20,000 nucleotides of DNA from an uncultured virus (IMG/VR IMGVR_UViG_3300024251_000006) (taxonomy: Duplodnaviria > Heunggongvirae > Uroviricota > Caudoviricetes). The stretch lies in the IMG/VR virus record IMGVR_UViG_3300024251_000006. One strand, given 5' to 3'. The notes under the pieces were generated by a model. The model was not told the origin of the DNA. It was given only the letters and a program-made list of their open reading frames with translations, and did no database searches. Shown here piece by piece: positions 2,056 through 19,073 of this stretch. Within the stretch, counting starts at the first letter, position 1. Every line of letters starts with the position of its first letter. The position numbers and the translations under genes were made by a program.

Positions 2056-2129
2056 GGGGTCGTCGTCTAGTGACAAGACGCTCGACTGTCGCTCGAAGAA
2101 CGGCGGTTTGATTCCGCTCGACCCCGCCA
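2056..2129 (+). tRNA. tRNA-Asp (anticodon GTC at 2088-2090) with encoded CCA
   Basis: Acceptor GGGGTCG/CGACCCC-G-CCA, D stem GTCT/AGAC, anticodon arm (C)TCGA-CTGTCGC-TCGA(A), T arm GGCGG-TTTGATT-CCGCT; G73 discriminator typical of Asp. Confidence 0.9.
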
Positions 2130-2134
2130 ACTAT

Positions 2135-2566: not shown

Positions 2567-2572
2567 ATCCGA

Positions 2573-2602
2573 TTGACATACTGAGGCCGTTCGCGCTACC
2601 GT
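2573..2602 (+). promoter_or_regulatory. sigma70-like promoter TTGACA-N18-TACCGT
   Basis: Intergenic, upstream of GGAGG and ATG 2624. Confidence 0.45.
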
Positions 2603-2623
2603 CCTCGTCCAAATGGAGGAACC

Positions 2624-2866
2624 ATGCTCACCTCACTAGCACTACTGATCGATCACCGTGTAGGGTTCTTCGGCCACGAAGGGGTGGTATGGGCGTTCAT
2701 CGGCCTGATCGCCACCGTCGTCATCATCGCCATATTGTTCAAGATTATGAAGCTGGTATTGCCGGCGCTGGGAGTAGGGGAGCCGTGGGTCTCGGTGATC
2801 TACTGGTTTGCCGTGCTGCTGTGCGTGCTGATCTTCCTGAACTACTCGTTCGGAGGGTGGTTCTAA
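2624..2866 (+). CDS. small integral membrane protein (2 clear TM helices; possibly holin-like)
   Basis: SD GGAGG; 80 aa, highly hydrophobic; no endolysin seen in the window. Confidence 0.75.
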   Translation: MLTSLALLIDHRVGFFGHEGVVWAFIGLIATVVIIAILFKIMKLVLPALGVGEPWVSVIYWFAVLLCVLIFLNYSFGGWF

Positions 2867-2890
2867 CAGCTACCATAGTCCACTTATCCC

Positions 2891-2930
2891 TTGACCAATA
2901 GATAGGTTAGTGCTATATAGGCTACCTATC
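2891..2930 (+). promoter_or_regulatory. promoter TTGACC-N17-(TG-C)TATATA overlapped by inverted repeat GATAGGT...ACCTATC (2901-2930)
   Basis: AT-rich intergenic region; the inverted repeat flanks the -10 and ends 1 nt before ATG 2932. Confidence 0.55.
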
Positions 2931-2931
2931 A

Positions 2932-3492
2932 ATGTCCGTATCGTTCTCATTCAAGACTCACTTACCTCTTCCGGCCACCGGTCAGGAGCTGCAGGACCGT
3001 ATCAAGCATCTCTTCGCCATCCGTGAGGCTCTGGATCAGGAGATAGAGACGCTGATGGGCGTCAAGGCTGAGACGGCCAAGCTCTATCACTGCGTACGTT
3101 GCGACTACAAGTGGAAGTCCCGTCTCGCTCATCGGCCGAAGATGTGCCCAAGCTGCCGCGTCAAGCGCTTCGATCGGCCGCCGCTCTATACCTATGAGGA
3201 GAAGATTGCACGGAAGAAGGAGCTCGCAGCCAAGCGCGTTGAAGTGACCTCGTCGACGCCGGTAGAAGCTCCCATGCCGCATTCCGTGCTGACCCGTCAA
3301 GTCTCTCTCGAGTCCGACAGCATCCAGAACGTGACACTCACCCCGCCGCCAATGCCGATGTCGTTGCGAGAACGCCTGGAATGGATGAAGACGCAGCCGC
3401 CGCCAGTTGTGGTAGTAGAGTCTGAGCCAATCATTGAACATACTGAGGAAGAGTTGATGGAGGCTATCAACGGTGAATCCGATGCTACTTAA
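2932..3492 (+). CDS. zinc-ribbon protein (CVRC-x3-W...PKMCPSC) with low-complexity C-terminus; possible DNA-binding regulator
   Basis: Two CxxC knuckles separated by 14 residues, preceded by a coiled-coil-like helix. Confidence 0.75.
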   Translation: MSVSFSFKTHLPLPATGQELQDRIKHLFAIREALDQEIETLMGVKAETAKLYHCVRCDYKWKSRLAHRPKMCPSCRVKRFDRPPLYTYEEKIARKKELAAKRVEVTSSTPVEAPMPHSVLTRQVSLESDSIQNVTLTPPPMPMSLRERLEWMKTQPPPVVVVESEPIIEHTEEELMEAINGESDAT

Positions 3493-3841
3493 GGTAACTC
3501 CCCGCCTAGAAGAGAGAATCAACGCCCGCTGGCTCTACTGGTCCCCATGGATGCTCATCCTGGCCCGCAAGAAGCTGCCGTTCATCTCTATCGACGTCTC
3601 GCTCGGCAGCGCCAGAATGCTCCATCGCGTTCGTTATCTCGACGCCATGAACCAACGCTTACCGGAACATATCATCAAGAAGCGTTCCCTCGACGATCCG
3701 CGGCTGCATCAGGATGAATACCGTATCAAGATGGAAGAAGCGCTACGCAGGAGCACGCTCCATCGTGGTAAACGTAAGGGTATCCGCCGCACACATAAGG
3801 AGATTCTGAAAGGACTGAACAATGTCGCCAGTACAGAATGA
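3473..3841 (+). CDS. basic hypothetical protein
   Basis: SD GGAGG upstream; overlaps both neighbours in operon fashion. Confidence 0.6.
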   Translation: MNPMLLKVTPRLEERINARWLYWSPWMLILARKKLPFISIDVSLGSARMLHRVRYLDAMNQRLPEHIIKKRSLDDPRLHQDEYRIKMEEALRRSTLHRGKRKGIRRTHKEILKGLNNVASTE

Positions 3842-4283
3842 GAAGGTCGTCAATCGTCCTCTTACCGGAAGCGAACTGAAAGCGTATTTGATGAGCATCT
3901 GTGAGAAATTACTTAGCGCTGAAGGGCTTTTATCCGAGCATATCGCCTTCGGCAAAGTCTCCGGCAACATCAAGCTCACTCTCAAGCTGGATAATGCCTA
4001 CTTTCCCGAGTCGGTCACCTCTATCGACTTCCAGAAGGAAGATCCATCAGCTCCACCCTCCAACGACAACGAATTCGCCCAACAAACCGCTACTTGGACC
4101 ATGGATAATCCTAACGCTGAGCGCGTCCGTCTCGGCCTGAAAGTCCCCGTAGAGACCAAGCAACTCGACGGCACGCGGCAGATTGAGCACATCTTGTATC
4201 CATCCGATATGGAAGAGTTGCCGCCTCAACAGGTAGAGATCCGGGACACTACGGTAGAAGGTAAGAAGGAGTGGAAACGATGA
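3822..4283 (+). CDS. hypothetical protein (153 aa)
   Basis: SD AAGGA; coupled to neighbours. Confidence 0.7.
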   Translation: MSPVQNEKVVNRPLTGSELKAYLMSICEKLLSAEGLLSEHIAFGKVSGNIKLTLKLDNAYFPESVTSIDFQKEDPSAPPSNDNEFAQQTATWTMDNPNAERVRLGLKVPVETKQLDGTRQIEHILYPSDMEELPPQQVEIRDTTVEGKKEWKR

Positions 4284-4489
4284 GCGTACATCCTATTCTC
4301 TGGCCCGATATCATCCTAGGCGTCCTCATTGCCGAAGCTATCCTGCACACTACCCGCACCGTGCTGCATCACTTCTCGAGCAAGAGCCGTAACAACATGA
4401 TTGCTCAACGGGTGAACGACATGCGGCCAGCGGCGCTGGATACCTACAGAGCGCGACAGGAACGAGACTTACATGCGCCTCTTGGATGA
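4280..4489 (+). CDS. small protein with N-terminal TM segment
   Basis: ATGA overlap with the upstream stop, SD AAGGAG, hydrophobic ILWPDIILGVLIAEAIL. Confidence 0.6.
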   Translation: MSVHPILWPDIILGVLIAEAILHTTRTVLHHFSSKSRNNMIAQRVNDMRPAALDTYRARQERDLHAPLG

Positions 4490-4712
4490 AGCCAAACAAT
4501 TCTTCTGGCTCCGCCGTATCGCTCTGGCCCTCGAGCGCCAAGCCACCATCGCCGAGAAACAGTTCGAGTTCGCTCAGCAGGAATGGCTGGCTAAGAATGC
4601 TCCCATCCCGCGCAAGAAGACCGAATTCGCCATCATGGACCAGGATGAGATCAATAAGGACTACCTCCGCAGGCTTGAAGCTCAGCGCGACGGTATAGAG
4701 CTGGACGAGTAA
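4473..4712 (+). CDS. hypothetical coiled-coil protein (79 aa)
   Basis: Operon-like overlap; C-ending codon bias like the core genes. Confidence 0.65.
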   Translation: MRLLDEAKQFFWLRRIALALERQATIAEKQFEFAQQEWLAKNAPIPRKKTEFAIMDQDEINKDYLRRLEAQRDGIELDE

Positions 4713-4754
4713 CCTTGTGGCGCAAAGTTCTTTACGCAACAGAAAGATTGAGAG

Positions 4755-5390
4755 ATGATCAGCAAATCCCTCGCCCTCCGCAAGCTCGGCCTGCAGCCCA
4801 AATCCCTGCTCAACGTCCCGCAAATCACTCCTCTGCTCACCGAGATCATGTCCGGCTTGAAGAAGCGCGGCCTGCCTACCGATCCGTATCACTACCTCGA
4901 CGCATCCTCGGACCTAGAAGCCCGCGGCCTCATGTCCGTCTATAAACACTCCTGGAAACAGGTCAGAGATGTGCTCCCACTCGAAGCCTTCTGTGTAGCC
5001 GCCGGCGTCGATCCCAACCGCATCCTGGACTCTCTGGTCCGCGTCATCGAGCGGGTGAAATCCCTAAAATCAGCAGTGAATCTCTCCGTCTCCCAGCCCG
5101 AGATTGTCGAGACCAACATAGAAGCCGCCATGGATGTTGACAACGGCTACAAGGACCGCCGCCTGCACATGCAAGTCTCAGGGTTGATGCCTATGCCCAA
5201 GGGTGCCCGCACCGTCGTCAACGTACAAACCTCAGCCACATCATCATCATCTCCGGTGCAACAGACGGTAGTGGCCGCTCCGGCGCCAGAACAAACAGTG
5301 AGACGCCTCAGCGAGCGCTTACATGCCATCAAGGGCACGCTACCCGAGATTCAGAAGGTTGAAGACGCCATACTGGTTGACGAAGAATGA
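4755..5390 (+). CDS. probable terminase small subunit (positional inference)
   Basis: 211 aa, helical, last core-composition gene before TerL, separated from it only by the MTase; no diagnostic motif recognised. Confidence 0.45.
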   Translation: MISKSLALRKLGLQPKSLLNVPQITPLLTEIMSGLKKRGLPTDPYHYLDASSDLEARGLMSVYKHSWKQVRDVLPLEAFCVAAGVDPNRILDSLVRVIERVKSLKSAVNLSVSQPEIVETNIEAAMDVDNGYKDRRLHMQVSGLMPMPKGARTVVNVQTSATSSSSPVQQTVVAAPAPEQTVRRLSERLHAIKGTLPEIQKVEDAILVDEE

Positions 5391-6037
5391 TTCAGCCTAA
5401 GCGAGTGCTAGACCTATTCTGCGGAGCCGGTGGTGCTGCAATGGGACTACACCGCGCATGGCCAGATGCTGAGATTGTTGGTGTAGATATTAAGCCGCAG
5501 CTAAATTACCCGTTTACGTTTGTGCAGGCTGATGCAATGACATTTGATGTGATAGGTTTTGATTTCATTTGGGCCAGTCCACCGTGCCAGAGATATTCCT
5601 GCGTGACACCAAAAACTCATAGGAATGGCCATCCAGATTTGCTAGTCGGTGTGCGAGATAGATTGTTAGGTCTTAGGGCGGTGGATAAGATTCCTTACGT
5701 GCTTGAAAATGTAGTTGGTGCCCGTAAACACCTCTTAGTTCCAATGATGCTCTGCGGATCAATGTTCAACTTGCGTTGTAGAAGGCATCGCCTTTTTCAA
5801 TTAGGTTTTCCTTGTGCGTCGCCACCCAAAAAATGTGATCATGCTAAGCCTATTCTTCTTGTGACTACCGCAGGAGCTAATAGCCGTAGGATAGGAAATT
5901 TTAAGTCAGTAAAGAATGCGCCGTTGGCCTACGGAATTGATTGGATGAGTGGAGATGAGCTTAAAGAGGCCATTCCTCCCGCTTACTCTGAATATATTGC
6001 CCGTCAGTGGTCTCTGGCACAGAAAGTAGCCGCCTGA
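5387..6037 (+). CDS. DNA (cytosine-5) methyltransferase, compact phage type
   Basis: Motif I LDLFCGAGG, motif IV ASPPCQ, motif VI LENV, motif VIII RRHRLF, motif X-like EAIPP. Confidence 0.9.
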   Translation: MIQPKRVLDLFCGAGGAAMGLHRAWPDAEIVGVDIKPQLNYPFTFVQADAMTFDVIGFDFIWASPPCQRYSCVTPKTHRNGHPDLLVGVRDRLLGLRAVDKIPYVLENVVGARKHLLVPMMLCGSMFNLRCRRHRLFQLGFPCASPPKKCDHAKPILLVTTAGANSRRIGNFKSVKNAPLAYGIDWMSGDELKEAIPPAYSEYIARQWSLAQKVAA

Positions 6038-8250
6038 TGTATCACCCCTCCCGCGTCGCTCAACGTATCGAACTCGCCCAGCGCGAATTCAGCGTCACTC
6101 TAGAACCACATTCCATCGCCGACGTCGACTCCTTCGAGGACCATCTCAAGCGCTACAACAAGTACGAACTGGACCAGAACGGCGCTCCCAAAGGTATGCA
6201 GCACCTTACCCAATTCGAGCACGACTGGATCCTCAACGAACAACTCCTCGTCTCTTGCGACGCCATGTACGCCCTCACCCGCTACGCCATCATCAAGGAT
6301 GAACAGAACAACATCCGCCGCTTCGAGCCGCGCGTCCCACAACGCCTGATCTTCGACGTCATCTCCGACCTCGAGCAACGCGACGCCGCCATCGAACTCA
6401 TGCTCCTGAAGGCCCGCCAGCTCGGCGTCTCTACTCTCATCGAACTCCTTATCGGCCTCCGCATCATCTTCGGCTACGGCGTCAACGCAGTCATCGGCTC
6501 CGCCGACCAGACTAAGACCGCTCTCATGGCCGGCATGATGTTCATGCTCTACGACCGCCTGCCCGTCTGGCTGCGCCCGCAGTGGACTAGGCGCGTCGAA
6601 TCCGACCGCGGCATGCTCATCTTCGGCCACAGCTTCTCCGGCGTATCCTTCCAGCACGGCGCCCAGATGTCCGGCATCGCCCGCGGTACCACGCCAACCG
6701 TCTACCATCTCTCCGAATGTGCCAGCTTCACCGATCCTATCAACCAGATTGAAGCCGCACTCTTCAAAGCCGTTCATGCCTCTCCCAACGTCTTCGGCGC
6801 ACTTGAAGGTACCGGCGAAGGCGACAAAGGCTGGTGGCCGGATACTTGGCGCCACGCCAAGGAGAACTGGCAGCATAACCGGGCTCGCCTCTGCCCTCTC
6901 TTCCTGCCATGGCTATGCGGAACGGATATCTATCCCACGCCCACCTGGCTCAGAATGCGTCCCATCCCCGACAACTGGTATCCCAATCCCGATACGCGAG
7001 AGCACGTTGCCAAGTCCGAACTCTACGTCCGGTCTCACCCGCTCCTAGCCAAGCATCTCGGCTCAACCTACCACATGCCCAAAGCCCAACAATGGTTCTG
7101 GGAAGTGGAGCACGAGCAGGCTAAGGCTAAGAACATGGAGGAGATCTTCCTGCAAGAGATGGCTGGCGACGACGAAGAAGCCTTGCAGAAGTCCATCACC
7201 TCCGCCTTCAGCCACCAGACACTCGCCGAGATAGAATCCCGCCGAGAAAAGACCATGGACATGTTCTGCCTCGTCGGCCAGTCCATCGAAGCCGACCACG
7301 AACCTCCCACCGAGTATATCGACTACGATAAGCCGCGCATTCCCATTAAATACACCAACATCCAAGAGAAGACGTACCGCTGGGAACTGATCCCTCTCCT
7401 TGAGCAGCAAATCCAGCCTAATCCCAAGGATCCCGCCACCGCCACCGGAATACTATTCATCTGGTCTCATCCTAAGCCCGGCGTGCGCTACTCGATCGGG
7501 GTAGATACAGCCGCCGGCAGAGGCGAAGACGCCACCGCCATCTCTGTCTGGGCTCTAGGTAAGAACAGCGACGATCCCGACACCCAAGTCGCCGAACTGG
7601 CCAGCTCCTACATCAACCACGCCGAAGCCTACGCATTCGTTATCGGTATTGCCGGATACTACGGCACCTACATGAAGCAAGAATACTCAAACAAGTGGCG
7701 TGAACCCTACGTCACCGTGGAAGTATTGGCCTCGGTTGGCGACATGTGCCTGAAAGATATGGCCAACATGGGCTACTCGCATTTCCACATGATGAGCCGC
7801 TACGACGGCAAGAACCCTCGCCGGGACAAAGCCATGGCTCGCAAGCGCGGATTCTTCACTGGAGCATGGGCTCGCGTGACGCTTACCACCTCTTTCGCCA
7901 CCTGGGCCAAGAACCTGTGGCTGCATATTAACTCTCCTTGGCTACTCGAAGAGATGCGCACCTTTGAGGCCAAAGTCACCGCCACGGGCAGGGAGAAGCT
8001 CGAGCACGAAGACGGCAAGCACGACGACCGTATCTTCGCCGCCGCCATGGCCTGCTTCGCTCCGCACGACCTCGAGCCCAACGCCGAACGGAGCAAGAAG
8101 CGCTCTTTCAACCCGTCTACACTCCCTCCGCTCAACTTGCAGCCCTCTAGGCCCTCAAATGTGTTCAATCCTAGGGATATGCAACAATCAGACATTGCAA
8201 CTGTGGACGATTTAGCATTTACTATGGACCAGATGGAAAGGTACCGATGA
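6037..8250 (+). CDS. terL: terminase large subunit
   Basis: Walker A LKARQLGVST, Walker B VYHLSE, coupling motif LEGTGEG, RNase H-like nuclease IGVDTAAGRGED and HDDRIFA; ATG 6037 coupled to the MTase stop (TGATG). Confidence 0.93.
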   Translation: MYHPSRVAQRIELAQREFSVTLEPHSIADVDSFEDHLKRYNKYELDQNGAPKGMQHLTQFEHDWILNEQLLVSCDAMYALTRYAIIKDEQNNIRRFEPRVPQRLIFDVISDLEQRDAAIELMLLKARQLGVSTLIELLIGLRIIFGYGVNAVIGSADQTKTALMAGMMFMLYDRLPVWLRPQWTRRVESDRGMLIFGHSFSGVSFQHGAQMSGIARGTTPTVYHLSECASFTDPINQIEAALFKAVHASPNVFGALEGTGEGDKGWWPDTWRHAKENWQHNRARLCPLFLPWLCGTDIYPTPTWLRMRPIPDNWYPNPDTREHVAKSELYVRSHPLLAKHLGSTYHMPKAQQWFWEVEHEQAKAKNMEEIFLQEMAGDDEEALQKSITSAFSHQTLAEIESRREKTMDMFCLVGQSIEADHEPPTEYIDYDKPRIPIKYTNIQEKTYRWELIPLLEQQIQPNPKDPATATGILFIWSHPKPGVRYSIGVDTAAGRGEDATAISVWALGKNSDDPDTQVAELASSYINHAEAYAFVIGIAGYYGTYMKQEYSNKWREPYVTVEVLASVGDMCLKDMANMGYSHFHMMSRYDGKNPRRDKAMARKRGFFTGAWARVTLTTSFATWAKNLWLHINSPWLLEEMRTFEAKVTATGREKLEHEDGKHDDRIFAAAMACFAPHDLEPNAERSKKRSFNPSTLPPLNLQPSRPSNVFNPRDMQQSDIATVDDLAFTMDQMERYR

Positions 8251-8696
8251 GAAAGCCTGGCTGCGTCGCCCCCGTAATCTACTTCCGCTACCCTTCCGGC
8301 CACCTCGTGCTCGCACCGTTCTCCGACTGTCCCACTCCCGACGGTGCCATCAAGGAAGAAGCCGACACACTGCCAGCTATCGACCGCCTCGTCGACCAGT
8401 TACGCAAGCAGGAATATGAGAATAGCCAGCGCGAGATGCGCTACGACATGAATCTGATGGCCGCCCGGGACAAGGAGATCAAGGATCGCATCTACGCCCG
8501 TATCTCATCCAACGTAACCACCGAATACGAGAAGGAATTCCTGCGCTTCTATCTACAACTACGCGATGACCGCAAGCGCGAGAATTACCGTCAGAGATTC
8601 CTTGAAGCGCAATGGTATCTGCACGCGAGAGAGAATGAACTTGGCAATCGTGACGCAGCAGCTGAGACTGTGAACTTGGACAAGGTACACTTCTAA
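8247..8696 (+). CDS. hypothetical protein (149 aa) between terminase and portal
   Basis: ATGA overlap with terL; charged helical protein. Confidence 0.75.
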   Translation: MRKPGCVAPVIYFRYPSGHLVLAPFSDCPTPDGAIKEEADTLPAIDRLVDQLRKQEYENSQREMRYDMNLMAARDKEIKDRIYARISSNVTTEYEKEFLRFYLQLRDDRKRENYRQRFLEAQWYLHARENELGNRDAAAETVNLDKVHF

Positions 8697-8908
8697 TGAA
8701 ACTAGCCTACAAGGACCTGCTTGAAGGTATCTTCTCTAAATCGACTCCAACTTTCATCTTTATGAATGCCAACACCAAGGCCGAAGCCGTGAAGTTGGGC
8801 GGAGAGAACTGGGCGAAACAGCTTCCTCCTAACGTAACCTTGGGACTCGACAATCTTCCAGACGGTGAAGTTAAGGTAGAATTCTCTTTCAAGTGGGATA
8901 AATCCTAG
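8696..8908 (+). CDS. small hypothetical protein (70 aa), AT-richer than flanks
   Basis: TAATG and TAGTG coupling on both sides. Confidence 0.65.
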   Translation: MKLAYKDLLEGIFSKSTPTFIFMNANTKAEAVKLGGENWAKQLPPNVTLGLDNLPDGEVKVEFSFKWDKS

Positions 8909-10980
8909 TGGCTGAGAAACTCTCATTCAAGAGTTGGCAGTGCCCTCCCGGCGCAACCGACGAAGCTAGTCGCCTAGGCTGGCTCGACGATGCCACCGGC
9001 GACGGCCTCGCCTGGCTAAAAAGCCAGCGCGGCTTCCGCGACTTCCGTAAAGCTCTCGACACCATCTCCGGCATGGATACTCAGCCAACCTATAACGCCT
9101 CCTACCGCAGCCGGATTAACACCAACCGTCTCAAGCGCAACATCCGAGAAGTCGTCTCGGTCATGTCCAAGCTGCGTCCCTTCTGGGGCTATCACAGCGA
9201 CAACAAAGCCTACGCCGACCAAGCGCTGATGATGAACAAAGTCACCCGCGCATGGTATCTCGAGAGTTTCGCCGACCGTGCGGTAAAGGAGGCACTCCAA
9301 TATGCGGCAGCGACTGGACGCGGCTGGATTCATCCCGTATACCGCAGAGATATGCATGGCACCGGAAGGGGTGACATTAAGTTACTCACATACGGCGCTC
9401 CCTCTGTCCTACCCACCCAACTCCCTAGCTCAGGCAACTGGCAAGAAGCCTACGCGGTTACCATTCTGGATGAAATGCCTGTTGCTATGGCGCACGGCAT
9501 GTTTCCTTCTTTTCAGGATAGATTAGTCCCTTCCAGCTCAAAGTATTGGTACCAGAACGACTCCGTCCACAAAGCCGCCCTCGGCAACGTCCTGCAACGT
9601 ATCTTCGGCAAGACACCTCGCGCCGAGACTGCCGGCCTGCCCGACCTTCTCGTGCCAGTGAGAAAAACGTGGGTGCTCGACCTCAGTATCAACACCACCG
9701 ACCGTCCCATCCCCATGGGCGAACCGGGCTCCACATGGTCTTACACCGTGCCGCACATCGGCCAGGAAATCCCCGTAGGCACCGACACCAACGGCCGTGC
9801 CCTAACCCGCAAGGCCGACGAGAACGATGCCCGGCTCTATCCCTACCGCCGCCTGCTCATCAGCTCCGACCGCTGCATCATGTATGACGGCCCCGGCTTT
9901 GACTGGCACGGCATGTTCCCGGGCATCAGCTTCAGCCCCGACAGTTGGCCATGGGAACCTCTCGGCTTCAGTCTCGTCCACGACGGCTACGATCTCAACG
10001 AATCCATGAAAGAGATCATGCGCGGCAACATGGACAAGATCAGGAGTCAACTCGATCCTCCATTGAAGTTTGATACCAACGCCACCTCCATGAAGGAGAT
10101 GCGCCGCTTCGATCCCATGCAGCCCCGCGCCCGCATCGGCCTCGACGGCAACGCGGTAGACGGCATCGGCGTAGACCTCGCCGTGCCCATGGACGTCCTC
10201 AAGGTCTATCCTGAATCCATGCAGATGTACGAGACTCTCGGCGCCGCCATGGACGCTCAGATGGCTATCAACGACGTGCAAGCCCTAGCCAAAGCCCGTA
10301 CCGTCGGCTCCATGGATGAGCTAGAAAAGATCATGGAGACGCAAGGCCCGATCGTCGAGGACATGTCCCGCTCCATGGAACCACCCATGCGCGACTTGGG
10401 CGTCATGGTCAAGTATCTCGTCCTGCAGTACTACACCACTCCTAGAGTGATGCAGATCGTTGGCATGGATGGCGTACATCCCGAGGTATTCGACTTCGAC
10501 CCTGCCAGCCTCGTGCCTTCTCACCTGCCCGGCGAGGATCCCAAGTTTGGCTCAGCGTCAGACAAGATCACCAGAGCTCGCGTCTTCGCCGACAACCTGC
10601 GCTTCTTCATCCTGCCTAACTCTCTGCACGAGATGACGCAGATGGCCATGAAGCTCGGGCTCGTGCAACTGAGAAAAGCCGGTGTGAAGATTGACTCCCA
10701 GACCATCGCAGAATCTTGGGAATTGCCAAACTACGGCAACCTACAGGGCAATACCATCATCGAGCGTTACCAGTCCGAGCAGGAACTAGACCTAGAATTC
10801 GCCGCCAGGATGCAACAAATAGCCGGCGCCGAAGGACTTATACCACCAGGTACGCCCCCGGGAGCCGCCGCACCTCCGGCTAAGCCTAATCCCGAAGGCC
10901 GACCACCTTCCGGCAACGCTCCACCTCGTCTAGTTTCCAAGGATAACGGTGCCAGAAGCACGATTACAGAGAGTCGGTGA
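8908..10980 (+). CDS. portal protein
   Basis: 690 aa, between TerL and scaffold/capsid; portal-like segments such as FDWHGMFP and WPWEPLGFSLV; Pro-rich disordered C-terminus. Confidence 0.8.
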   Translation: MAEKLSFKSWQCPPGATDEASRLGWLDDATGDGLAWLKSQRGFRDFRKALDTISGMDTQPTYNASYRSRINTNRLKRNIREVVSVMSKLRPFWGYHSDNKAYADQALMMNKVTRAWYLESFADRAVKEALQYAAATGRGWIHPVYRRDMHGTGRGDIKLLTYGAPSVLPTQLPSSGNWQEAYAVTILDEMPVAMAHGMFPSFQDRLVPSSSKYWYQNDSVHKAALGNVLQRIFGKTPRAETAGLPDLLVPVRKTWVLDLSINTTDRPIPMGEPGSTWSYTVPHIGQEIPVGTDTNGRALTRKADENDARLYPYRRLLISSDRCIMYDGPGFDWHGMFPGISFSPDSWPWEPLGFSLVHDGYDLNESMKEIMRGNMDKIRSQLDPPLKFDTNATSMKEMRRFDPMQPRARIGLDGNAVDGIGVDLAVPMDVLKVYPESMQMYETLGAAMDAQMAINDVQALAKARTVGSMDELEKIMETQGPIVEDMSRSMEPPMRDLGVMVKYLVLQYYTTPRVMQIVGMDGVHPEVFDFDPASLVPSHLPGEDPKFGSASDKITRARVFADNLRFFILPNSLHEMTQMAMKLGLVQLRKAGVKIDSQTIAESWELPNYGNLQGNTIIERYQSEQELDLEFAARMQQIAGAEGLIPPGTPPGAAAPPAKPNPEGRPPSGNAPPRLVSKDNGARSTITESR

Positions 10981-11222
10981 TGACGCCAGCTGAAGCACTC
11001 GAACACCAGCGCAAGGGCGGCAAGCTCTACGAATACATCTCTCCACGTGTCACCTGGACCTTCGATGCCGATGCCTACTACCAAGCCCGTGGAACCAAGG
11101 TAGTCTGCTTCACCATCCCGGCCACCAATCCAGCCCACGAGCACGGCGGCTACTCCAAGGAGTACCATGAAGAAGCTCTAGCCGCCTCGCGTGATGGCCG
11201 CATCAGATGGCAAATACTATGA
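10977..11222 (+). CDS. hypothetical protein (81 aa)
   Basis: GTGA overlap with the portal stop. Confidence 0.6.
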   Translation: MMTPAEALEHQRKGGKLYEYISPRVTWTFDADAYYQARGTKVVCFTIPATNPAHEHGGYSKEYHEEALAASRDGRIRWQIL

Positions 11223-11455
11223 GCGTAACCAGTATCCGCACCACCACCACGGAGACAATGACTCCGCTTCGCGATACTTACCACCTCGTGCGCGAACGTG
11301 TCTACCAGGGCTCCCTCGACTTCGTACAAATCCTCATCGGCCTGCGCACCGAAAAGGCCACCGGTACCCTCGAAGTAGCACTCTCCCAAGGCGGTATCTG
11401 CCGTGTCCGGTTCCGTGAAGAGCAGGATATCCGCTACTCTTCCATCCATCCCTAA
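11219..11455 (+). CDS. small protein with C-terminal TGTLEVALSQGGICRVRFREE motif (reminiscent of DUF2292/YezD-like beta proteins); possible regulator
   Basis: ATGA coupling at 11219 (alternative start 11207); immediately precedes the promoter and structured RNA. Confidence 0.6.
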   Translation: MSVTSIRTTTTETMTPLRDTYHLVRERVYQGSLDFVQILIGLRTEKATGTLEVALSQGGICRVRFREEQDIRYSSIHP

Positions 11456-11464
11456 CGATTTCTC

Positions 11465-11495
11465 TTGACAACACCTAGTCCTGTTACTGTAGAGT
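11465..11495 (+). promoter_or_regulatory. probable promoter for head genes (TTGACA at 11465; -10 candidate TAGAGT at 19-nt spacing)
   Basis: ttttctcttgaca context identical to the leftward promoter at 965-977; -10 spacing is non-ideal. Confidence 0.5.
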
Positions 11496-11625
11496 CCCCA
11501 CAGTGGGATTCGTTATCCCCTGACACCACAGTCAGGTTAGATACGGCCGACTGCTATTAACGCACCTCTTGCTTGGTTGCCTCCGAGCCCGACACATGCG
11601 TTAGTGGTAGTCGGCCTTTTTGTTT
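11495..11625 (+). ncRNA. structured leader or small RNA ending in a 20-bp stem plus U-tract
   Basis: Hairpins GGGAT/ATCCC and CCTGAC/GTCAGG; 11545-11564 pairs fully with 11597-11616 (3 G-U pairs); nested GCTTGG/CCGAGC hairpin; TTTTTGTTT follows. Confidence 0.7.
11545..11625 (+). terminator. intrinsic terminator or attenuator-like element
   Basis: GC-rich stem base GGCCGAC/GTCGGCC directly followed by TTTTTGTTT. Confidence 0.6.
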
Positions 11626-11638
11626 CCAGAGGAGCCCT

Positions 11639-11725
11639 ATGAAGCATCACGGTAAGGATGGCAAAAAGGAAAAGGACGGTAAGAAGGACGGTAAGGGCGC
11701 GAAGCTATTCGGCAAGAAGAAGTAA
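11639..11725 (+). CDS. 28-aa Lys/Gly-rich peptide MKHHGKDGKKEKDGKKDGKGAKLFGKKK, absent from the ORF track
   Basis: SD GAGGAG 4 nt upstream; KDGK repeats; first ORF after the RNA element. Confidence 0.6.
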   Translation: MKHHGKDGKKEKDGKKDGKGAKLFGKKK

Positions 11726-11738
11726 CGGGAGACATTCG

Positions 11739-11894
11739 ATGCGCGGACACAGTAAATCAGGCGGTTTCGCCGGTAATCTCACCAAGATCGGCGGCGCCGG
11801 CTCCAAGCTCAAGATGAAGTCCGATATGAAGGCCGACACTATGGTTGGCCCCAGTCTCAAGAAGGGTAAGAAGCAGGCGCACAAGAAAGCATAA
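11739..11894 (+). CDS. 51-aa Lys-rich basic peptide (MRGHSKSGG...KKGKKQAHKKA)
   Basis: SD GGGAG upstream of ATG 11739; stop abuts the next ATG. Confidence 0.6.
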   Translation: MRGHSKSGGFAGNLTKIGGAGSKLKMKSDMKADTMVGPSLKKGKKQAHKKA

Positions 11895-12203
11895 ATGGCT
11901 GCCGCTCCAGTTGCGATGACTCCGCCCCCAAGTGCAGGGGGAAATGCCCCGCCATCGCCGGCGCAGGTCAATCCAACCTCGCCGCCGCAAGTATCACCGG
12001 CTCCGGCCACTCCTTCTCCACAAATGAATGAGGGAACGCAACTGGGTATCAGGATAGCTCACGACCTTACAGCCCTGGCCAAGATGTTTCCGGTGGTTAC
12101 GCCAAAGATTGCGCAGATTAACAATATCTTGCGGGAAGTGGTAGCTGGAATCATGGAAAGTTCTCAGACGGGCGAACCCGCCGCGCCGCCGAGTAACGGG
12201 TAA
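11895..12203 (+). CDS. Pro-rich hypothetical head-module protein (102 aa)
   Basis: Adjacent start; Pro-rich N-terminus plus a helical hairpin. Confidence 0.7.
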   Translation: MAAAPVAMTPPPSAGGNAPPSPAQVNPTSPPQVSPAPATPSPQMNEGTQLGIRIAHDLTALAKMFPVVTPKIAQINNILREVVAGIMESSQTGEPAAPPSNG

Positions 12204-12212
12204 GGAGGCAAA

Positions 12213-13049
12213 ATGACATACGCAGAGTATTTGAAAGCCAATGGGGCCACAGAGGAAGAGATCAAGGTTTTGGATTCAGCGGTAGCCCGCCGCGCATTCG
12301 ATAAGTCGCAGGCTGAAGCCGAGGAAGCCCGTCAGACTGCCGCTAAGCTCGAAGAGACCATGAAGAATTACGAAGCTCGCGTGCAGTCCTGGTACACCGA
12401 GAACGACAGCAAGCTCAAGCAGGTCCAGAATCAAGCCGTAGCCGCTGCTGCCGAAGCTGCTCGCGCCAAGGCTGCTCTCTTGGAAGCCCAAAAGCAGGGC
12501 ATGGTGGACATTGCCAAGGATTTAGGCTACGAAACGGAACCTCCTAAGCAACAGCCCGCCGCTCCTGACGATCGCTATCTCACCATGGAGAAGTTCCAGC
12601 AGGCCGGTGACACCTTCGCCGCCAATCTTACCGCCATGCTCGACGCGGCCAGCGAACACGCACGCCTCTTCCCCAACGTCCCTTTCAACGCCGAACAGCT
12701 CCGCCGTGAAGCTCAATCCCAGGGCAAAACTCTGCTCCCTTATTGGGAAGAGAAGTTCAAGGTACGCGATGCTCGCGAAGCCGCCGCCCAAAAGCAGCGT
12801 GACGCCGAAATCGCCAAGTGGAAAGCCGAAGGCGCCAAGGAGAAGGAAACCGAACTGGTCTCCCGCTTCGGCAATCCCGAGACACGTCCCATGGTTCCTT
12901 CCAAGTCACCTTTCGCTGTGCGCCCCGACGATAAGCTGCGCGCTGACAACCAGCCGTGGAATAAGAGCGAAACGCAGCTTGCGAATGACCGTGTCGTACG
13001 CGGGGTTCAGAAATTAGCAGAGCGTCAGTCCGAGGGATTCAAGAATTAG
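12213..13049 (+). CDS. capsid scaffolding protein (probable)
   Basis: SD AAGGAGG; Ala/Glu/Lys-rich coiled coil, immediately upstream of the major capsid gene. Confidence 0.7.
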   Translation: MTYAEYLKANGATEEEIKVLDSAVARRAFDKSQAEAEEARQTAAKLEETMKNYEARVQSWYTENDSKLKQVQNQAVAAAAEAARAKAALLEAQKQGMVDIAKDLGYETEPPKQQPAAPDDRYLTMEKFQQAGDTFAANLTAMLDAASEHARLFPNVPFNAEQLRREAQSQGKTLLPYWEEKFKVRDAREAAAQKQRDAEIAKWKAEGAKEKETELVSRFGNPETRPMVPSKSPFAVRPDDKLRADNQPWNKSETQLANDRVVRGVQKLAERQSEGFKN

Positions 13050-13077
13050 CTGTCAGTGAGTACACAGGAGAGTAAAG

Positions 13078-14220
13078 ATGGCCGACCCAACATTTGATCA
13101 AATCTCAGCCACAACACTGGCAGATCTCAAAGACGATGTACTCGTTGATAATTTTTTCGTCGAAACTCCATGGATGCGCAAGATGCGCGCCATGGGCGCT
13201 CTCGAAGACTTTGCCAGCGGTACCTTCATGCAGGATCCGTTTATGTACGACCGTGTGAACGGTGGCGCTATTGCTCCAGGCTCCGATGTGACCGTCGTGC
13301 AGAAGCAGATCATCGCGGCCACCGCCTTCGTGCCCAAGGAATACGTGGAGCAGGTGCCATTGAACCTCTGGCAGACCAACGTAATCCAGGGTTCCGGCCC
13401 GGCGGTCAAGGTCAAGTTGATCGACGCTTACATGCAGAACGCGGTGCAGGCACTCAACACCGACGTAGCCATTGACTTCTACCGTCACGGGCAGAACATT
13501 ACCGGCTCCAACCGGCAGATCTTCATTAACGGTCTCTCCGAAGCGCTCAACGACGGTGTCAACCCCTCCTGGGACGGTAACGTGTTCACCACTTACGGCG
13601 GCCAGACTCGTAACGGCGCTATCGGCAACGTACTCAACTCAGTTCCGACATGGGTTGGCGACACCGCCGGCAACACCGGCCAGATCAGCTACAAGACAGT
13701 CTTCGAGGCGTATCAAAACTGCGTGCAGCCTCCCGACATCGGCCTGTGCAACAAGGCTCTCTTCAGCTACTTGGCCGAGCGTCAGGAACCGAAGCAGCGC
13801 TTTGAGATGGTCTCAGACCTCAGCATTGGCGTCAGCGGCCTGAAAGTCCTCGATGGCACCATCTTCGTGGACAAACTGGCTCCGTCGACCAAGTACGGCA
13901 CCATCCTGCCGTCCAACCTGAGCCAGACCACAAGCATCAAGCCGACAGCCTTCACCACTCCGACGCTCAGCACGACGCAGAACGCCATCTCTAACTACCC
14001 GAGCGCCACTTCCTGCACTCCCGGCGAGCCATTCTTCTGGCTGCGCGTCAAGGGATGGAAGCTCCGTCCGTCATCCGACCCGGAGTATAACTTCAACTTC
14101 ACGCCGCCTATCCGCAGCCAGAACAACGCGGACTTGGTGGTCATGTTCCTCAAAGCGGGCTTGAACCTCTACACCGTGCAGCCTCGCGATAACTGGCAGC
14201 TGGTTGGCGCAGGATTCTAA
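13078..14220 (+). CDS. major capsid protein
   Basis: 380 aa, SD AGGAG, strong codon bias, N-terminus DQISATTL...VDNFF of phage major-capsid type, synteny portal-scaffold-capsid. Confidence 0.85.
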   Translation: MADPTFDQISATTLADLKDDVLVDNFFVETPWMRKMRAMGALEDFASGTFMQDPFMYDRVNGGAIAPGSDVTVVQKQIIAATAFVPKEYVEQVPLNLWQTNVIQGSGPAVKVKLIDAYMQNAVQALNTDVAIDFYRHGQNITGSNRQIFINGLSEALNDGVNPSWDGNVFTTYGGQTRNGAIGNVLNSVPTWVGDTAGNTGQISYKTVFEAYQNCVQPPDIGLCNKALFSYLAERQEPKQRFEMVSDLSIGVSGLKVLDGTIFVDKLAPSTKYGTILPSNLSQTTSIKPTAFTTPTLSTTQNAISNYPSATSCTPGEPFFWLRVKGWKLRPSSDPEYNFNFTPPIRSQNNADLVVMFLKAGLNLYTVQPRDNWQLVGAGF

Positions 14221-14271
14221 ATGAGAATACTAAGTGGGTTCTCAGTGAGATTGGGATAAAGGAGATACACC

Positions 14272-14949
14272 ATGGCAGGCGGAATGCTCACGAAACAAGC
14301 TGACCAACTCACAGCCAAGTGGCTCAACGACGTCAACGACTCGACTTCCGGTGGCGCATTAGTCAGCGTCCCTACCGGTGTCCAGTCGGTGCAGTCGAGC
14401 GCAACGCAGCCCGGCGACCGTATCGTGCTGGACGACGCTTCGGCTCTGGCTAACAGTGATACCACTGTCGGCACGCTCTACGGCGGCGTCTACATGTACG
14501 TCGGCACGCTAGCCACCTCGACAGCCTCACCAGTCCGCGGTGCCATTGCCTTCTGGCGCTCCAACGAACTGCCGGGTGGCGCAACACAGTCTTACGTGGT
14601 CACCGCTGACGCTCAGCCCACCACTGCCGTCCCGGGCTACATTGCCGGCGTATTCATCAACCCGACGACCTCCAGCGGCACCGGCGTAGCACTCACCAAG
14701 GGCAACTTCGGCTGGATTCAAGTGGCAGGCACGGCCTCAGTGTTCTTCGACTCTACTCTGACGGCTTCAGCTACTGCTACCACGGTCTCCGCCAAGGTCA
14801 GCGCAACCATCGCATCCACCGCCGACGCAGGCGTGGCTCTAACTACCACCACCCTGTCCTTCGTTCTCGGCGTAGCTATCGGCAGCCCGATCAGCTCTAC
14901 GATCTCTAGCGTAATCATCACCCGCGGTAACTTCTGCGGCCGCATCTAA
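14272..14949 (+). CDS. Ser/Thr-rich virion structural protein (capsid decoration/cement-like)
   Basis: SD AAGGAG; follows capsid; GNFGWIQVAG motif typical of post-capsid decoration proteins. Confidence 0.65.
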   Translation: MAGGMLTKQADQLTAKWLNDVNDSTSGGALVSVPTGVQSVQSSATQPGDRIVLDDASALANSDTTVGTLYGGVYMYVGTLATSTASPVRGAIAFWRSNELPGGATQSYVVTADAQPTTAVPGYIAGVFINPTTSSGTGVALTKGNFGWIQVAGTASVFFDSTLTASATATTVSAKVSATIASTADAGVALTTTTLSFVLGVAIGSPISSTISSVIITRGNFCGRI

Positions 14950-14962
14950 GGGAGGGACTTGA

Positions 14963-15355
14963 ATGGCATTCCCGCTTGGAAACAAAGTTCTCCCCGGCTA
15001 TCCGCAACAGGTCGGCGCGAAGAATCAAATCATCTTTGACCATACCGGCCCGACGTCCTATACCCGGTACGTCACTGGAGCCGTGCCAACCGGCGGCGAC
15101 GGCATTACAGCTATCAGCTTGGGCTTCGGCGGCTTCGACAACATGGACGATACCGCCGACGTTACCGGCCAGTTCAACGCCATCGTGGTCATGGACTTGG
15201 CTGGAACCGCCAACGCCGTACCTCGGGTCACCATCAAGTACTACTCACTGGTTACTGCCACGGTAGGCGGCCAATCCCAGACGGTGGGCGCAGAGGCTGC
15301 AACCGGAACCAACCTATCCACTTTCAGCTTCCGCTTTGAAGCGTACATGGTCTAA
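14963..15355 (+). CDS. small beta-rich virion structural protein
   Basis: SD GGAGG; Gly/Thr-rich; GPTSY...GG motif; position in the head module. Confidence 0.65.
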   Translation: MAFPLGNKVLPGYPQQVGAKNQIIFDHTGPTSYTRYVTGAVPTGGDGITAISLGFGGFDNMDDTADVTGQFNAIVVMDLAGTANAVPRVTIKYYSLVTATVGGQSQTVGAEAATGTNLSTFSFRFEAYMV

Positions 15356-15376
15356 TCTGGACGCCGGAGGGCTACC

Positions 15377-16393
15377 TTGGCGTTCCAGAACATGCAAGCG
15401 GAGTTGAGAGGCGCGGTACCTAAGTTGCCTTTCAGCTACACCGGCACCCTCATCAATCGCGCTTGGGGCGTCATCCGCGACTCGGATATCTGGTCGTTCC
15501 AGCTCTATGAATCCTCATGGCGCAGCCCGGCGGTAGTCACCACTGGTACCGTTACGGTGGTACTAGGCTCTGATACCGTCCAGTTCGATGCCGCCGCCGT
15601 CGCCGCTATCAACCAGTCGCAGCTCGATTGCCCTACCAGTCTTATCACCCAGCGCCAACTCCGGCCAGGCTCATCCTCCGGCGTATCGCAAATCTACAAC
15701 CTCATCCAGTACGATCAGATCACCGGCGCCGCCACGCTCGACCGAACGTACTACGACAACTCTGGCACCAACATCTCCTATCAGCTCTACCAGCTCTATT
15801 ATCCTGCCCAGTATCAGGACCACAAGACGTGGATTAGTGTGCGCAACATGTCGATGTATATGTGGCTAGGCACCACCATGGAGCGGGCAGAACTCGACAT
15901 GATCGACCCGCAACGGTCCATCTATCAGTTCCCGTCTCAAGTCGTGCCGTACATGACCGACGCCAGAGGACAAGGTACCGACAATGCCAGTGCCACTCTG
16001 GGCTTCCCGCTCTACGAACTCTGGGGTCAGCCGGTCAATCCCTTCGTCTACGCCACCTACGGTCGGCGTCTCGGCAACGACCTAGTCAACCCGACCGACA
16101 CCCTGCCAGTCCAAGTCGGCGAGGATTGCGTCATCGCTAGAGCCAGAATGTACGCTTACGAATGGGCCGAAGCCAATAAGGACTTGGCACCTAGAAACAA
16201 TGGCCCTGACTTCCGGTTCCTCTACGGTGTCGCTGCCGCCGAGTACAAAGACCGCATGACCAAGTATCGCCAGCAGGATAAGGACTTCGTCGACGCATGG
16301 TTCAGCATCCGCGGCATCAACTGGATGGGCCAGAATTACGGGGCATATAACACCCAGTTAGGTGTATCAACAGTATATGGTGGGCAGTATTAA
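15377..16393 (+). CDS. head-tail adaptor / connector-like protein
   Basis: TTG start with SD GGAGG; N-terminal LINRAW...W.F helix pattern of adaptor proteins; position after head genes. Confidence 0.55.
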   Translation: MAFQNMQAELRGAVPKLPFSYTGTLINRAWGVIRDSDIWSFQLYESSWRSPAVVTTGTVTVVLGSDTVQFDAAAVAAINQSQLDCPTSLITQRQLRPGSSSGVSQIYNLIQYDQITGAATLDRTYYDNSGTNISYQLYQLYYPAQYQDHKTWISVRNMSMYMWLGTTMERAELDMIDPQRSIYQFPSQVVPYMTDARGQGTDNASATLGFPLYELWGQPVNPFVYATYGRRLGNDLVNPTDTLPVQVGEDCVIARARMYAYEWAEANKDLAPRNNGPDFRFLYGVAAAEYKDRMTKYRQQDKDFVDAWFSIRGINWMGQNYGAYNTQLGVSTVYGGQY

Positions 16394-16428: not shown

Positions 16429-16454
16429 CCGAATCTCGGAGGCACCGTAGTTGC

Positions 16455-18180: not shown

Positions 18181-19073
18181 GTATTGGCACCGTATTCGCC
18201 ACCACTGGCGGTTCCAAACTAGCCCGCTGTTTGCGTTCCTTCGCCCGCATGGAACCCGACGTCCAGCCTCACGTCGTTCTCGACACTTCCTCTAACACTT
18301 GGAAGCGCAATCAGCGGCTTGACGTCCCGCCCAACACTCCCGTACGTCACATTGTCAACTCCGCTCACATCAACGGCGTACTCAACGCCGCACTCGAATG
18401 GATGAAAGAATTGGGCCACACGCATGCCGCACTATTCCACGACGATCTAATCTTCTCGCCGCTGCCAGAGCACAGATATTCTCTCTCAGAATGGTTCACT
18501 CATCCTCTAGTGCAAACTTCCTCCGGCCTGCGCTACTCGCACTTCGAGACTTTCGTGCCAGAAGTCGACTCCCGCCGCGCGTCCGAAGTCTGGGAATACG
18601 AAGACTTGGAATCACCAGAGCTGTGGACCTTCCTCAAGACCTTCACCATGTGCGATGGAGTGGATTGCCGTCCTCCCGGTCGTAGTTTCTGGTTCAAATA
18701 CGAAGGTCCCGACAAGGTACGCAAGTGGAATCGTCTTGGACCCACGGGACAAATAGTTCCTCTCGCCACTTGGGAACAGGTTGGCAAATTTGACGAAGTG
18801 GAAGGTATATTCTACGACGGCGAGTATCCTTCAGAATGCTTCAAGCGCAAGCTGCCTCCGGTCTACGCCGTGACCAACTTCCCTTACATCCATCTGCACA
18901 ACCAGTCCATGAATCCTTGGGGCGATCCCGCTCCCAACGGTTTCGGCAACACTGGCGCGGCTTACGAGCGGCGTTATCACGCGGACTGGCCGGGCTTCTG
19001 GGGCGGAGATTGGGAAGAAAAGTGGAAGGATGAGCATGAAGATCTTGTATCTGTCCAGTGCAAGCGGAGCTGA
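18177..19073 (+). CDS. GT-A fold glycosyltransferase (family 2-like)
   Basis: LFHDD (DxD-like) after NAALE; WEQVGKFDE...YDGEY and IHLH C-terminal motifs. Confidence 0.65.
   Translation: MSIGTVFATTGGSKLARCLRSFARMEPDVQPHVVLDTSSNTWKRNQRLDVPPNTPVRHIVNSAHINGVLNAALEWMKELGHTHAALFHDDLIFSPLPEHRYSLSEWFTHPLVQTSSGLRYSHFETFVPEVDSRRASEVWEYEDLESPELWTFLKTFTMCDGVDCRPPGRSFWFKYEGPDKVRKWNRLGPTGQIVPLATWEQVGKFDEVEGIFYDGEYPSECFKRKLPPVYAVTNFPYIHLHNQSMNPWGDPAPNGFGNTGAAYERRYHADWPGFWGGDWEEKWKDEHEDLVSVQCKRS

Follow-up and report, generated by a model that had tools for sequence, protein, structure and literature searches.

The c4 RNA is encoded ahead of its targets within one operon and arises by processing of the common transcript. 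In P1 and P7, loops of c4 pair at the ribosome site, and differences between loop and target give rise to heteroimmunity, as described in PMC12197685. Here, we analysed a 20-kb phage segment (the window, 20,000 nucleotides in full; G+C content 56%) of the uncultured virus IMGVR_UViG_3300024251_000006. Between its portal module and its head genes the window contains a structured RNA unit, whose terminator hairpin carries at its tip the complement of a tag, formed by Shine-Dalgarno (SD) sequence and spacer, in front of several of the phage's own genes. Judging from the sequences compared, this RNA probably acts in trans as an antisense RNA that masks SD sequence, spacer and start codon of promoter-proximal early genes.

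Like c4, the unit is a structured non-coding phage RNA with loops complementary to sites at the ribosome-binding site of its own phage, and related phages differ in the matching bases of loop and target. Unlike c4, it has no similarity to that RNA in sequence or structure, and the c4 family gave no Rfam match at the gathering score or at E values up to 10. Whereas c4 belongs to the operon of its targets, the present RNA lies ~10.5 kb from its main targets and on the opposite strand; and whereas c4 serves one antirepressor module of a temperate phage, the tag found here is common to many genes. The RNA unit is not a c4 member, and c4 is the closest known system.

The 6S RNA of lambda is a terminated late-promoter leader RNA. 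StxS, too, is a terminated leader, and it acts in trans by base-pairing (PMC12197685). With lambdoid late leaders the unit shares its short length, a promoter-like block directly 5' of structural genes and a strong terminator-like end, which nothing but an SD sequence separates from the next open reading frame (ORF). It differs from them in that a Q-like antiterminator was not recognised nearby, the two upstream ORFs having no Pfam or PHROG match (a novel type is possible). It is unrelated to these leaders in sequence, and its predicted targets are early ribosome sites of its own phage and not host mRNAs.

Small RNAs that mask SD sequences with C-rich loops are RNAIII and RsaE in staphylococci, 6C in actinobacteria, and CcsR and the cuckoo RNAs with their CCUCCUCCC loops. 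The unit resembles them in presenting anti-SD-like loops complementary to several mRNAs and in carrying two to three such motifs per RNA in close relatives. Its motif, however, is UGCCUCCGAG and not CCUCCUCCC, UCCC or a run of C; its specificity would come from a flank complementary to the spacer, and it is encoded by a phage, with a proposed phage regulon. Absence of the CCUCCUCCC motif from the sequence and of any Rfam match speaks against membership in the cuckoo/CcsR group.

Early-to-late switching in phages is usually explained by proteins, i.e., repressors, modifiers of RNA polymerase, RegA and RegB. In T4, RegA is a translational repressor protein and RegB a GGAG-cutting endoribonuclease. 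As a functional analogy only, the RNA would share with both the post-transcriptional shut-off of many early genes via their ribosome-binding regions, the difference being that the proposed effector is an RNA, which would recognise a phage-specific tag by Watson-Crick pairing. Candidate non-coding RNAs derived from 5' untranslated regions of virulent phages have been catalogued without function (PMC10914365). A full-text literature search and passages of PMC12197685 gave no description of a phage RNA directed at an SD extension common to the genes of an early regulon, which is not proof of absence.

A hairpin tip complementary to ribosome sites of the leftward arm

For comparison with the window we used a 25.7-kb IMG/VR fragment (G001), which has 1 mismatch to window positions 1-16219 and adds 9,497 bases leftward; two complete relatives with direct terminal repeats, G002 (63.7 kb) and G003 (63.8 kb); three complete relatives without the tip hairpin (G004-G006); and 24 related loci retrieved via the portal, whose close group is 92-100% identical in this protein.

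The apical hairpin at the end of the long terminator hairpin (Table 1) contains TGGTTGCCTCCGAG at 11574-11587. Its 12-nt part, TGGTTGCCTCCG, is also present on the + strand at 922-933, where the minus-strand mRNA reads CGGAGGCAACCA followed by TG. A sequence-only reading of this DNA had pointed to the match, assigned it to the first gene behind the leftward promoter and proposed a trans-acting small RNA that displays an anti-SD loop to a subset of the phage's own ribosome-binding sites. That gene is indeed the first one there, a 31-aa hydrophobic ORF (830-922), and a literal match check found every string quoted in that reading in its place. The 6-nt loop UUGCCU (11577-11582) is unpaired with a probability of 1.00, at an opening cost of 8.6 kcal/mol. 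In ten distinct members of the RNA family, the block UUGG-N-UGCCUCCGA is identical in 10 of 10 save for N, which is U in seven, A in two and C in one; conservation of the loop in homologues had been named beforehand as a check on the proposal. Of the apical helix (helix 5), the outer three pairs covary (AU/UA/CG, GC/UA/CG, CG/AU), whereas no change is seen in the four inner pairs or, N excepted, in the loop; the tip is therefore constrained in sequence beyond structure.

The divergent leftward arm begins at a promoter-like site at position 970. In the window and G001 taken together, the first six GGAGG sites of this arm all read GGAGGCA, against one of the next seven; five of the six are GGAGGCAA and two are GGAGGCAACC-ATG. 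At least six genes of the window's phage carry the tag, and the tagged genes encode small proteins, mostly without a family. The predicted targets are mainly promoter-proximal genes of this leftward, early-type arm, a set that takes the place of the 'selected operons' first suggested. The 8 nt at positions 1-8 belong to a true ribosome site, that of a 130-aa gene beyond the left end which is visible in G001. The ribosome sites of the capsid (13078) and decoration (14272) genes lack GGAGGCA, as the sequence-only reading had it. The matches it listed for the scaffold gene and for gene 68-349 do lie at ribosome sites, but with 8 nt they are marginal, and the scaffold site is uncompensated in one relative (L181, see below).

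Chance complementarity was assessed with CCTCC held fixed and the flanks of the 19-nt tip shuffled, using the longest complementary run per start region as the statistic. Runs of at least 10 nt occur in 2 of 44 start regions of the window, which 1 of 1000 flank shuffles reached; for runs of at least 9 nt and at least 8 nt the observed values were reached by 26 and 28 of 1000 shuffles, respectively. The complementarity thus holds against shuffled controls, a comparison needed since part of each match is the SD core. For the 12-bp duplex at 922-933, a hybrid energy of -22.9 kcal/mol stands against +8.6 for opening the RNA and +6.0 for opening the mRNA, leaving a net value of ~-8 kcal/mol. According to these calculations, only the sites of 10-12 nt are convincing on energetics. 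With its tip, the RNA has an accessible and conserved seed complementary to several mRNAs above chance, as is looked for in a trans-acting small RNA.

Downstream of the 31-aa ORF, the next leftward gene begins at an overlapping TAATG (~827). A 31-aa peptide whose whole ribosome site is covered by an RNA face resembles, in its layout, a type I toxin and an antitoxin RNA acting on it in trans.

Two further 8-mer matches, at 2184-2191 (+, CGGAGGCA, a small hairpin loop in a 143-aa ORF) and at 18853-18860 (-), were discarded because they lie inside coding sequence and not at ribosome sites. Pairing extended in the 5' direction (CUC before GGAGG) was seen only at the glycosyltransferase gene of the window and at one G002 gene (46484), without a pattern.

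A different source of the tag would be the tail of the host 16S rRNA. We scanned 185,579 species genomes, one each, for the universal 16S motif followed by TGCCTCC within 18-34 nt. A single genome showed this pattern, a Syntrophomonas metagenome-assembled genome (L182) with the end ...GGATCCTGCCTCCTTTCT in a different context. Owing to this near-absence of UGCCUCC tails, no known rRNA tail accounts for the bases that follow GGAGG. The scan thus rules out an origin of the tag in the host 16S tail, strongly if not absolutely, as many metagenome-assembled genomes lack 16S genes.

The tip might also be a general anti-SD element or 16S-tail mimic, which soaks up SD sequences or decoys a factor and has no phage regulon. 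CCUCC is the universal anti-SD core, and two or three CCUCC motifs are present per RNA in close relatives: a second (U)CCUCCGAG is found in the hairpin-2 loop (L005/L027, L008/L030, L171, L173) and a third motif, CCUCCGA, in the long hairpin of G003. The window RNA, however, has lost the second CCUCC loop, its hairpin-2 loop being 12 nt shorter and devoid of the second (U)CCUCCGAG. Furthermore, it is the flank outside the SD complement (UGGUUG or UGGAUG) that confers specificity, and this flank matches the phage tag only; an SD pairing of 5 bp is too weak for an opening cost of 7-8.6 kcal/mol. A general mimic is, in our estimation, very improbable. The CCUCC of hairpin 2 was also considered as a second seed and set aside, since a matching tag was not seen by eye in the ribosome-site lists of the relatives, of which no count was made. 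CCUCCGAGG is nearly self-complementary, and loop-loop contacts are conceivable from its sequence.

Tip and tag differ together between relatives

The tip reads UUGGUUGCCUCC (loop U) in G002 and UUGGAUGCCUCC (loop A) in G003; eight genes are tagged in the former and six in the latter, where the tag is of the GGAGGCAUCC type. In G002, CAACC follows 5 of 34 GGAGG sites (binomial p = 2.7e-10, or 2.7e-7 when multiplied by the 1024 5-mers), and in G003 CATCC follows 4 of 48 (p = 2.5e-7, or 2.6e-4). Runs of at least 10 nt complementary to the genome's own tip were present in 5 of 137 start regions of G002 and 3 of 105 of G003, values reached by 8 and 4 of 1000 flank shuffles, respectively. When the tips were exchanged, a single run of at least 9 nt was left in G002 (G003 tip; 8 with its own tip) and likewise in G003 (G002 tip; 3 with its own).

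The ratio of CAA to CAT after GGAGG amounts to 14:4 in U-loop genomes versus 1:7 in the A-loop genome G003 (Fisher p=0.0033; p=0.02 for G002 versus G003 alone). Shorter contigs add to this: the A-loop contig L173 has GGAGGCATCCT and GGAGGCATAA, and the U-loop contigs L175 and L177 have GGAGGCAAC. At the scaffold site, A is found in 5/5 U-loop contigs and in the C-loop contig, T in 2/2 A-loop contigs. Two orthologous sites switch from A to T, namely that of the scaffold gene and that of the MKLTGK gene (G002 46915 / G003 48497). A control outside ribosome sites, GGAGGCATTG within the portal gene, has T in U-loop and A-loop contigs and C in the window and is thus independent of loop type. In loop-bearing genomes 30 of 108 GGAGG sites are followed by CA, compared to 12 of 189 in G004-G006 (p=1e-6). 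A compensatory change of seed and target, the other feature looked for in a trans-acting small RNA, is apparent from these comparisons as one event, with one site that is not compensated.

These patterns could alternatively originate at the DNA level, with GGAGGCAACC being a gene boundary spread by recombination or a protein site, and the hairpin copy its inverted relic. In line with this, the early arms are mosaic, and the genes behind two G002 sites (39383, 39761) are paralogues that resemble each other in their 5' flanking DNA. However, both the register to the start codons and the orientation to the genes are fixed. The inverted copy, placed where a covarying RNA helix exposes its tip, does not vary among the 10/10 members, and it follows the tag variant of its own genome. 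We see scarcely any probability for a DNA motif of this kind.

Fold, signals and distribution of the RNA unit

The minimum free energy of the unit is -60.3 kcal/mol, compared to -33.2 +/- 3.4 in 200 shuffles, none of which reached it (z -8.05), and the region folds as the sequence-only reading had described. In four relatives, z ranged from -5.4 to -8.0. Ahead of hairpin 2 there is a small 5' hairpin, beginning at 11497. With a covariance model built from five members, each genome yielded exactly one hit of full length (120.5 bits in the window, 132.9 in G002, 135.9 in G003), and the model also detected truncated, weaker versions in more distant phages (L016 34.5 bits, L015 26.7 bits). Aligning the 10 distinct members, we found the 38 predicted pairs formed in 96.5% of 374 cells. 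Changes on both sides were present in 16 of the 38 pairs, which none of 500 shuffles reached; with the partner slid by 1-3 columns, only 1-3 pairs remained. Helix 4 of the long hairpin comprises 18 pairs, 9 of them with a compensatory change, and includes UG/GU pairs in 10/10 and 8/10 members. The conserved G-U pairs, the U-run and the side on which the promoter lies identify the + strand as the transcribed strand.

Within the close group the intergenic unit is ~70-77% identical, with -35 block, TACTGTA and U-run at fixed positions; the distance from TTGACA to TACTGTA is fixed in relatives although the spacer sequence varies. As to a promoter and terminator of its own, terminator hairpin and U-run are conserved, and so is the promoter-like block, which has an odd spacing and was missed by the promoter scan described below. 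The 11-mer TTCTCTTGACA is common to the RNA promoter (11460-11470, +) and the leftward promoter (959-970, -). Both also contain ACTGTAG, 15 nt (RNA) versus 8 nt (leftward) from the -35 block, and 10 nt in the distant L019. By their sequence, these shared elements may constitute an operator for a phage regulator.

Searching Rfam with the whole window at gathering score returned nothing but the tRNA-Asp, and the interval 11440-11660 at E values up to 10 gave chance-level hairpin matches only (best mir-5881, 20 bits versus a gathering score of 87). With strict gapped patterns, the family turned up in no more than 9 contigs of IMG/VR and 12 of metagenomes. A loose pattern, CTTGGNTGCCTCCGA, hit at least 118 stretches of viral contigs, which we regard as chance hits because the model finds the RNA in 0/79 new loci.

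Another complementarity, between RNA positions 11537-11549, at the junction of hairpin 2 and basal stem, and 14937-14949 (+), the decoration-gene end CGGCCGCATCTAA, was set aside as a probable coincidence: the site is coding, and its RNA partner is hidden within the basal stem. CGGCCGCATCTAA lies just 5' of the SD sequence of gene 14963, and the window copy has one mismatch to the RNA. Several relatives, distant ones included, have at this place a 12-13-mer that complements the window RNA without mismatch.

Proposed mechanism and points against it

In the mechanism we propose, the RNA would be made from the conserved promoter-like block, with its 3' end at the intrinsic terminator, where transcripts arriving from the portal module would acquire it as their last part. 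The tip, UGG(U)UGCCUCC, is the exact complement of the tag GGAGG-CAACC-AUG on promoter-proximal leftward genes. The exposed 6-nt loop UUGCCU would nucleate on AGGCAA of the mRNA, the weak apical stem of 5-6 bp would open next, and the duplex would grow to 10-12 bp over SD sequence, spacer and first base of the start codon. With the 30S subunit shut out, tagged genes would be translated less, amounting to an RNA-based shut-off or dosing of early genes. A discrete RNA species, its pairing in vivo, the repression and its timing are what we infer here. The core of the original proposal, a trans-acting small RNA on a subset of the phage's own ribosome-binding sites, gains from the invariance of the tip (10/10), the enrichment of the tag in G002 and G003 and the joint difference of tip and tag.

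Several observations weigh against this mechanism. The claim of an anti-SD sequence displayed in the loop stands by half: CCU of CCUCC is exposed, but the last CC is part of the apical stem and paired with GG of the 5' strand. A sigma-70 consensus scan with 16-18-nt spacers did not call the RNA promoter, whose spacing is unusual. Moreover, this promoter has its -35 block in common with that of the target arm, so that RNA and target arm may be co-expressed, which affects the timing logic. At 16435-16444 the hybrid energy of -18.9 is offset by +8.4 (RNA) and +6.9 (mRNA), and at 12204-12211 the hybrid of -13.0 by +7.0 and +2.8, leaving net values of only ~-3.5 and ~-3.2 kcal/mol. The former site, with its 10 nt before the glycosyltransferase gene, has no counterpart in front of the syntenic gene in G002 or G003; the match is confined to this lineage, and as a target it is doubtful.

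The joint difference of tip and tag has limits of its own. In a tree of the portal proteins, all U-types fall into a single clade (96/98), with the A-types (two lineages) outside; the loop change is therefore one event, and the co-variation rests on two lineages. G002 and G003 share 43 reciprocal-best pairs, but the early arm contributes few of these, and most early genes are not orthologous; whole-module exchange and not site-by-site compensation may have produced the matched sets. Exceptions are three CAT-type sites in G002 and one CAA-type site in G003. L181 (1.7 kb), the only C-loop member, keeps GGAGGCAAAC at the scaffold site, i.e., there is no compensation. Covariation of loop and targets, for which the sequence-only reading had asked, is thus seen in the association of U-loop with CAA and A-loop with CAT, as a single event and with the site of L181 left uncompensated.

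Finally, in more distant phages, whose portals are 60-68% identical, the position is likewise occupied by a promoter, a 5' motif resembling CAGGGTTCC, hairpin 2 and a terminator with a GGCCCG stem, yet both the UGCCUCC tip and the tag are missing. Since the scaffold is kept without the tip, the unit has a function independent of the anti-SD face. The tip is thus younger than the scaffold of promoter, 5' motif, hairpin and GGCCC-stem terminator, which probably serves also as leader and terminator of the head-gene operon. For G004-G006, we compared the loops of the leader RNAs with the k-mers enriched in the start regions of the respective genome and found no complementary loop.

One may go further and regard the unit as nothing but a leader and terminator of the head-gene operon, read through upon antitermination in the manner of the lambdoid late leaders, with the tip being a protein or RNA polymerase element and its complementarity incidental. 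The position agrees with this, since the lysine-rich ORFs and the scaffold and capsid genes follow directly and no second promoter intervenes, as do the tipless scaffolds of the distant relatives and the truncated versions in L016 and L015. What such a leader leaves unexplained is the tag enrichment in the start regions of each genome, the joint absence of tip and tag, and the joint difference of loop base and tag base; in addition, an antiterminator family was not found in the two upstream ORFs. We take a role as leader alone to be unlikely.

The same pairing might also have another outcome, such as leader protection from nucleases, timed decay, or tagged mRNAs acting as a sponge. Complementarity and co-variation fit this equally, and the -35 block shared by RNA and target arm suggests co-expression. 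The duplex, however, covers SD sequence, whole spacer and first start-codon base, and a duplex there blocks initiation in known antisense systems (c4, as described in PMC12197685). Outcomes other than masking appear quite improbable to us.

If masking by the antisense RNA is true, a whole regulon would be addressable by one 12-nt face via a private SD extension, and close phages could diverge in regulatory specificity by single paired changes. A search rule for uncultured phages would follow: one would look for terminator hairpins whose tip complements an SD-plus-spacer tag that is over-represented in the genome. The U-loop and A-loop versions would be a naturally orthogonal pair of RNA and ribosome site, and the leftward-arm genes of the C-loop lineage would be expected to carry CAGCC-type tags, GGAGGCAGCC.

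Beyond that, it is possible, though unlikely, that tip and tag form a lineage-specific address code on immediate-early genes, in which the loop base sets the specificity and brings about sibling exclusion or heteroimmunity. The variable base of such a code would be U, A or C among phages from soil metagenomes. A sibling that superinfects the cell would then have its early genes silenced by the RNA of the resident phage if both are of one type, but not if the types differ, representing RNA-based exclusion or heteroimmunity in a phage of virulent appearance.

Genome setting

The features referred to above and the neighbouring genes are listed in Table 1. TPR/glycosyltransferase-like and methyltransferase-like genes are located 3' of the head genes.

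Table 1 Positions of the RNA unit, of complementary ribosome sites and of neighbouring genes. Positions refer to the window unless a relative is named.
Feature	Position	Strand or arm	Sequence or remark
Promoter-like block	11465-11495	+	TTGACA 11465-11470, 14-nt variable spacer, TACTGTA, TAGAGT (TAnnnT) 11490-11495
Structured RNA unit, ~125-130 nt	11497-11626	+	5' conserved stretch, hairpin 2, long terminator hairpin
Hairpin 2	11514-11543	+	CCUGAC/GUCAGG core
Long hairpin	11545-11616	+	20-bp basal stem, internal loop region, apical hairpin
Apical hairpin	11571-11588	+	GCUUGG-UUGCCU-CCGAGC
Proposed pairing face	11574-11585	+	UGGUUGCCUCCG; seed = loop 11577-11582
U-run, intrinsic-terminator-like end	11617-11625	+	TTTTTGTTT; kept in all members
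Leftward promoter-like site	942-970	-	TTCTCTTGACA ... ACTGTAG; 5' of tagged arm
SD, spacer and start-codon A of 31-aa gene	922-933	-	CGGAGGCAACCA-UG; best predicted target, 12-nt match
31-aa hydrophobic single-helix ORF	830-922	-	MLTLLSRLVCTVVGFVAIGVALTYILSLARL; first gene of leftward arm
Ribosome site of 93-aa gene (68-349)	354-361	-	GGAGGCAA; 8 nt, duplex -18.1
Part of ribosome site of 130-aa gene left of window	1-8	-	CGGAGGCA, within GGAGGCAAT ATG; seen in G001
Ribosome site of scaffold-position gene	12204-12211	+	GGAGGCAA; marginal target
Match 5' of TPR/glycosyltransferase-like gene	16435-16444	+	CTCGGAGGCA, listed as CUCGGAGGCA; ATG 16455, 12 nt after SD
Leftward-arm ribosome site	932	leftward arm	GGAGGCAACC-ATG
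Leftward-arm ribosome site	361	leftward arm	GGAGGCAAACTA-ATG
Leftward-arm ribosome site	7	leftward arm	GGAGGCAAT-ATG
Leftward-arm ribosome site	-395 (G001)	leftward arm	GGAGGCAGGATC-ATG
Leftward-arm ribosome site	-1173 (G001)	leftward arm	GGAGGCAAGGTC-ATG
Leftward-arm ribosome site	-1582 (G001)	leftward arm	GGAGGCAACC-ATG
G002 tagged sites	37036, 39373, 39751, 40059, 49028	divergent arm	GGAGGCAACC
G002 tagged sites	36463, 46906	divergent arm	GGAGGCAAC
G002 scaffold gene			GGAGGCAAAC
G003 tagged sites	56933, 56149, 52403, 48509	divergent arm	GGAGGCATCC
G003 tagged site	56615	divergent arm	GGAGGCATC
G003 scaffold gene			GGAGGCATG
tRNA-Asp	2056-2129
DNA methyltransferase	5387-6037	rightward arm
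Large terminase	6007-8250	rightward arm
P22-like portal	8908-10980	rightward arm
Two small ORFs	10977-11222, 11207-11455		between portal and RNA unit
Scaffold-position gene	12213-13049	rightward arm
Major head protein	13078-14220	rightward arm

A sequencing-run search returned 24 DNA runs with this sequence, all of them soil metagenomes, and 0 RNA runs. Blastn of 11300-11900 against a phage GenBank collection gave no match. Scanning 98 of the 116 predicted G002 proteins with PHROGs, we recognised no integrase or repressor. A tagged early-arm protein of G003 (L032:15169-15750, -) has a weak PEP-CTERM-like C-terminus (E 0.0026, below cut-off), a faint hint from sequence at a Gram-negative host with an exosortase system.

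The 143-aa ORF at 2135-2566 (+) starts 6 nt 3' of the tRNA-Asp gene without a visible SD sequence and has a signal-peptide-like N-terminus. Directly 3' of the terminator, two basic Lys/Gly-rich ORFs are found at 11639-11725 (+, 28 aa, MKHHGKDGKK...) and 11739-11894 (+, 51 aa, MRGHSKSGGF...). No family was assigned to either of them; the MKHHGK start of the 28-aa ORF is kept in relatives, and from their composition both may be internal head or DNA-binding peptides.

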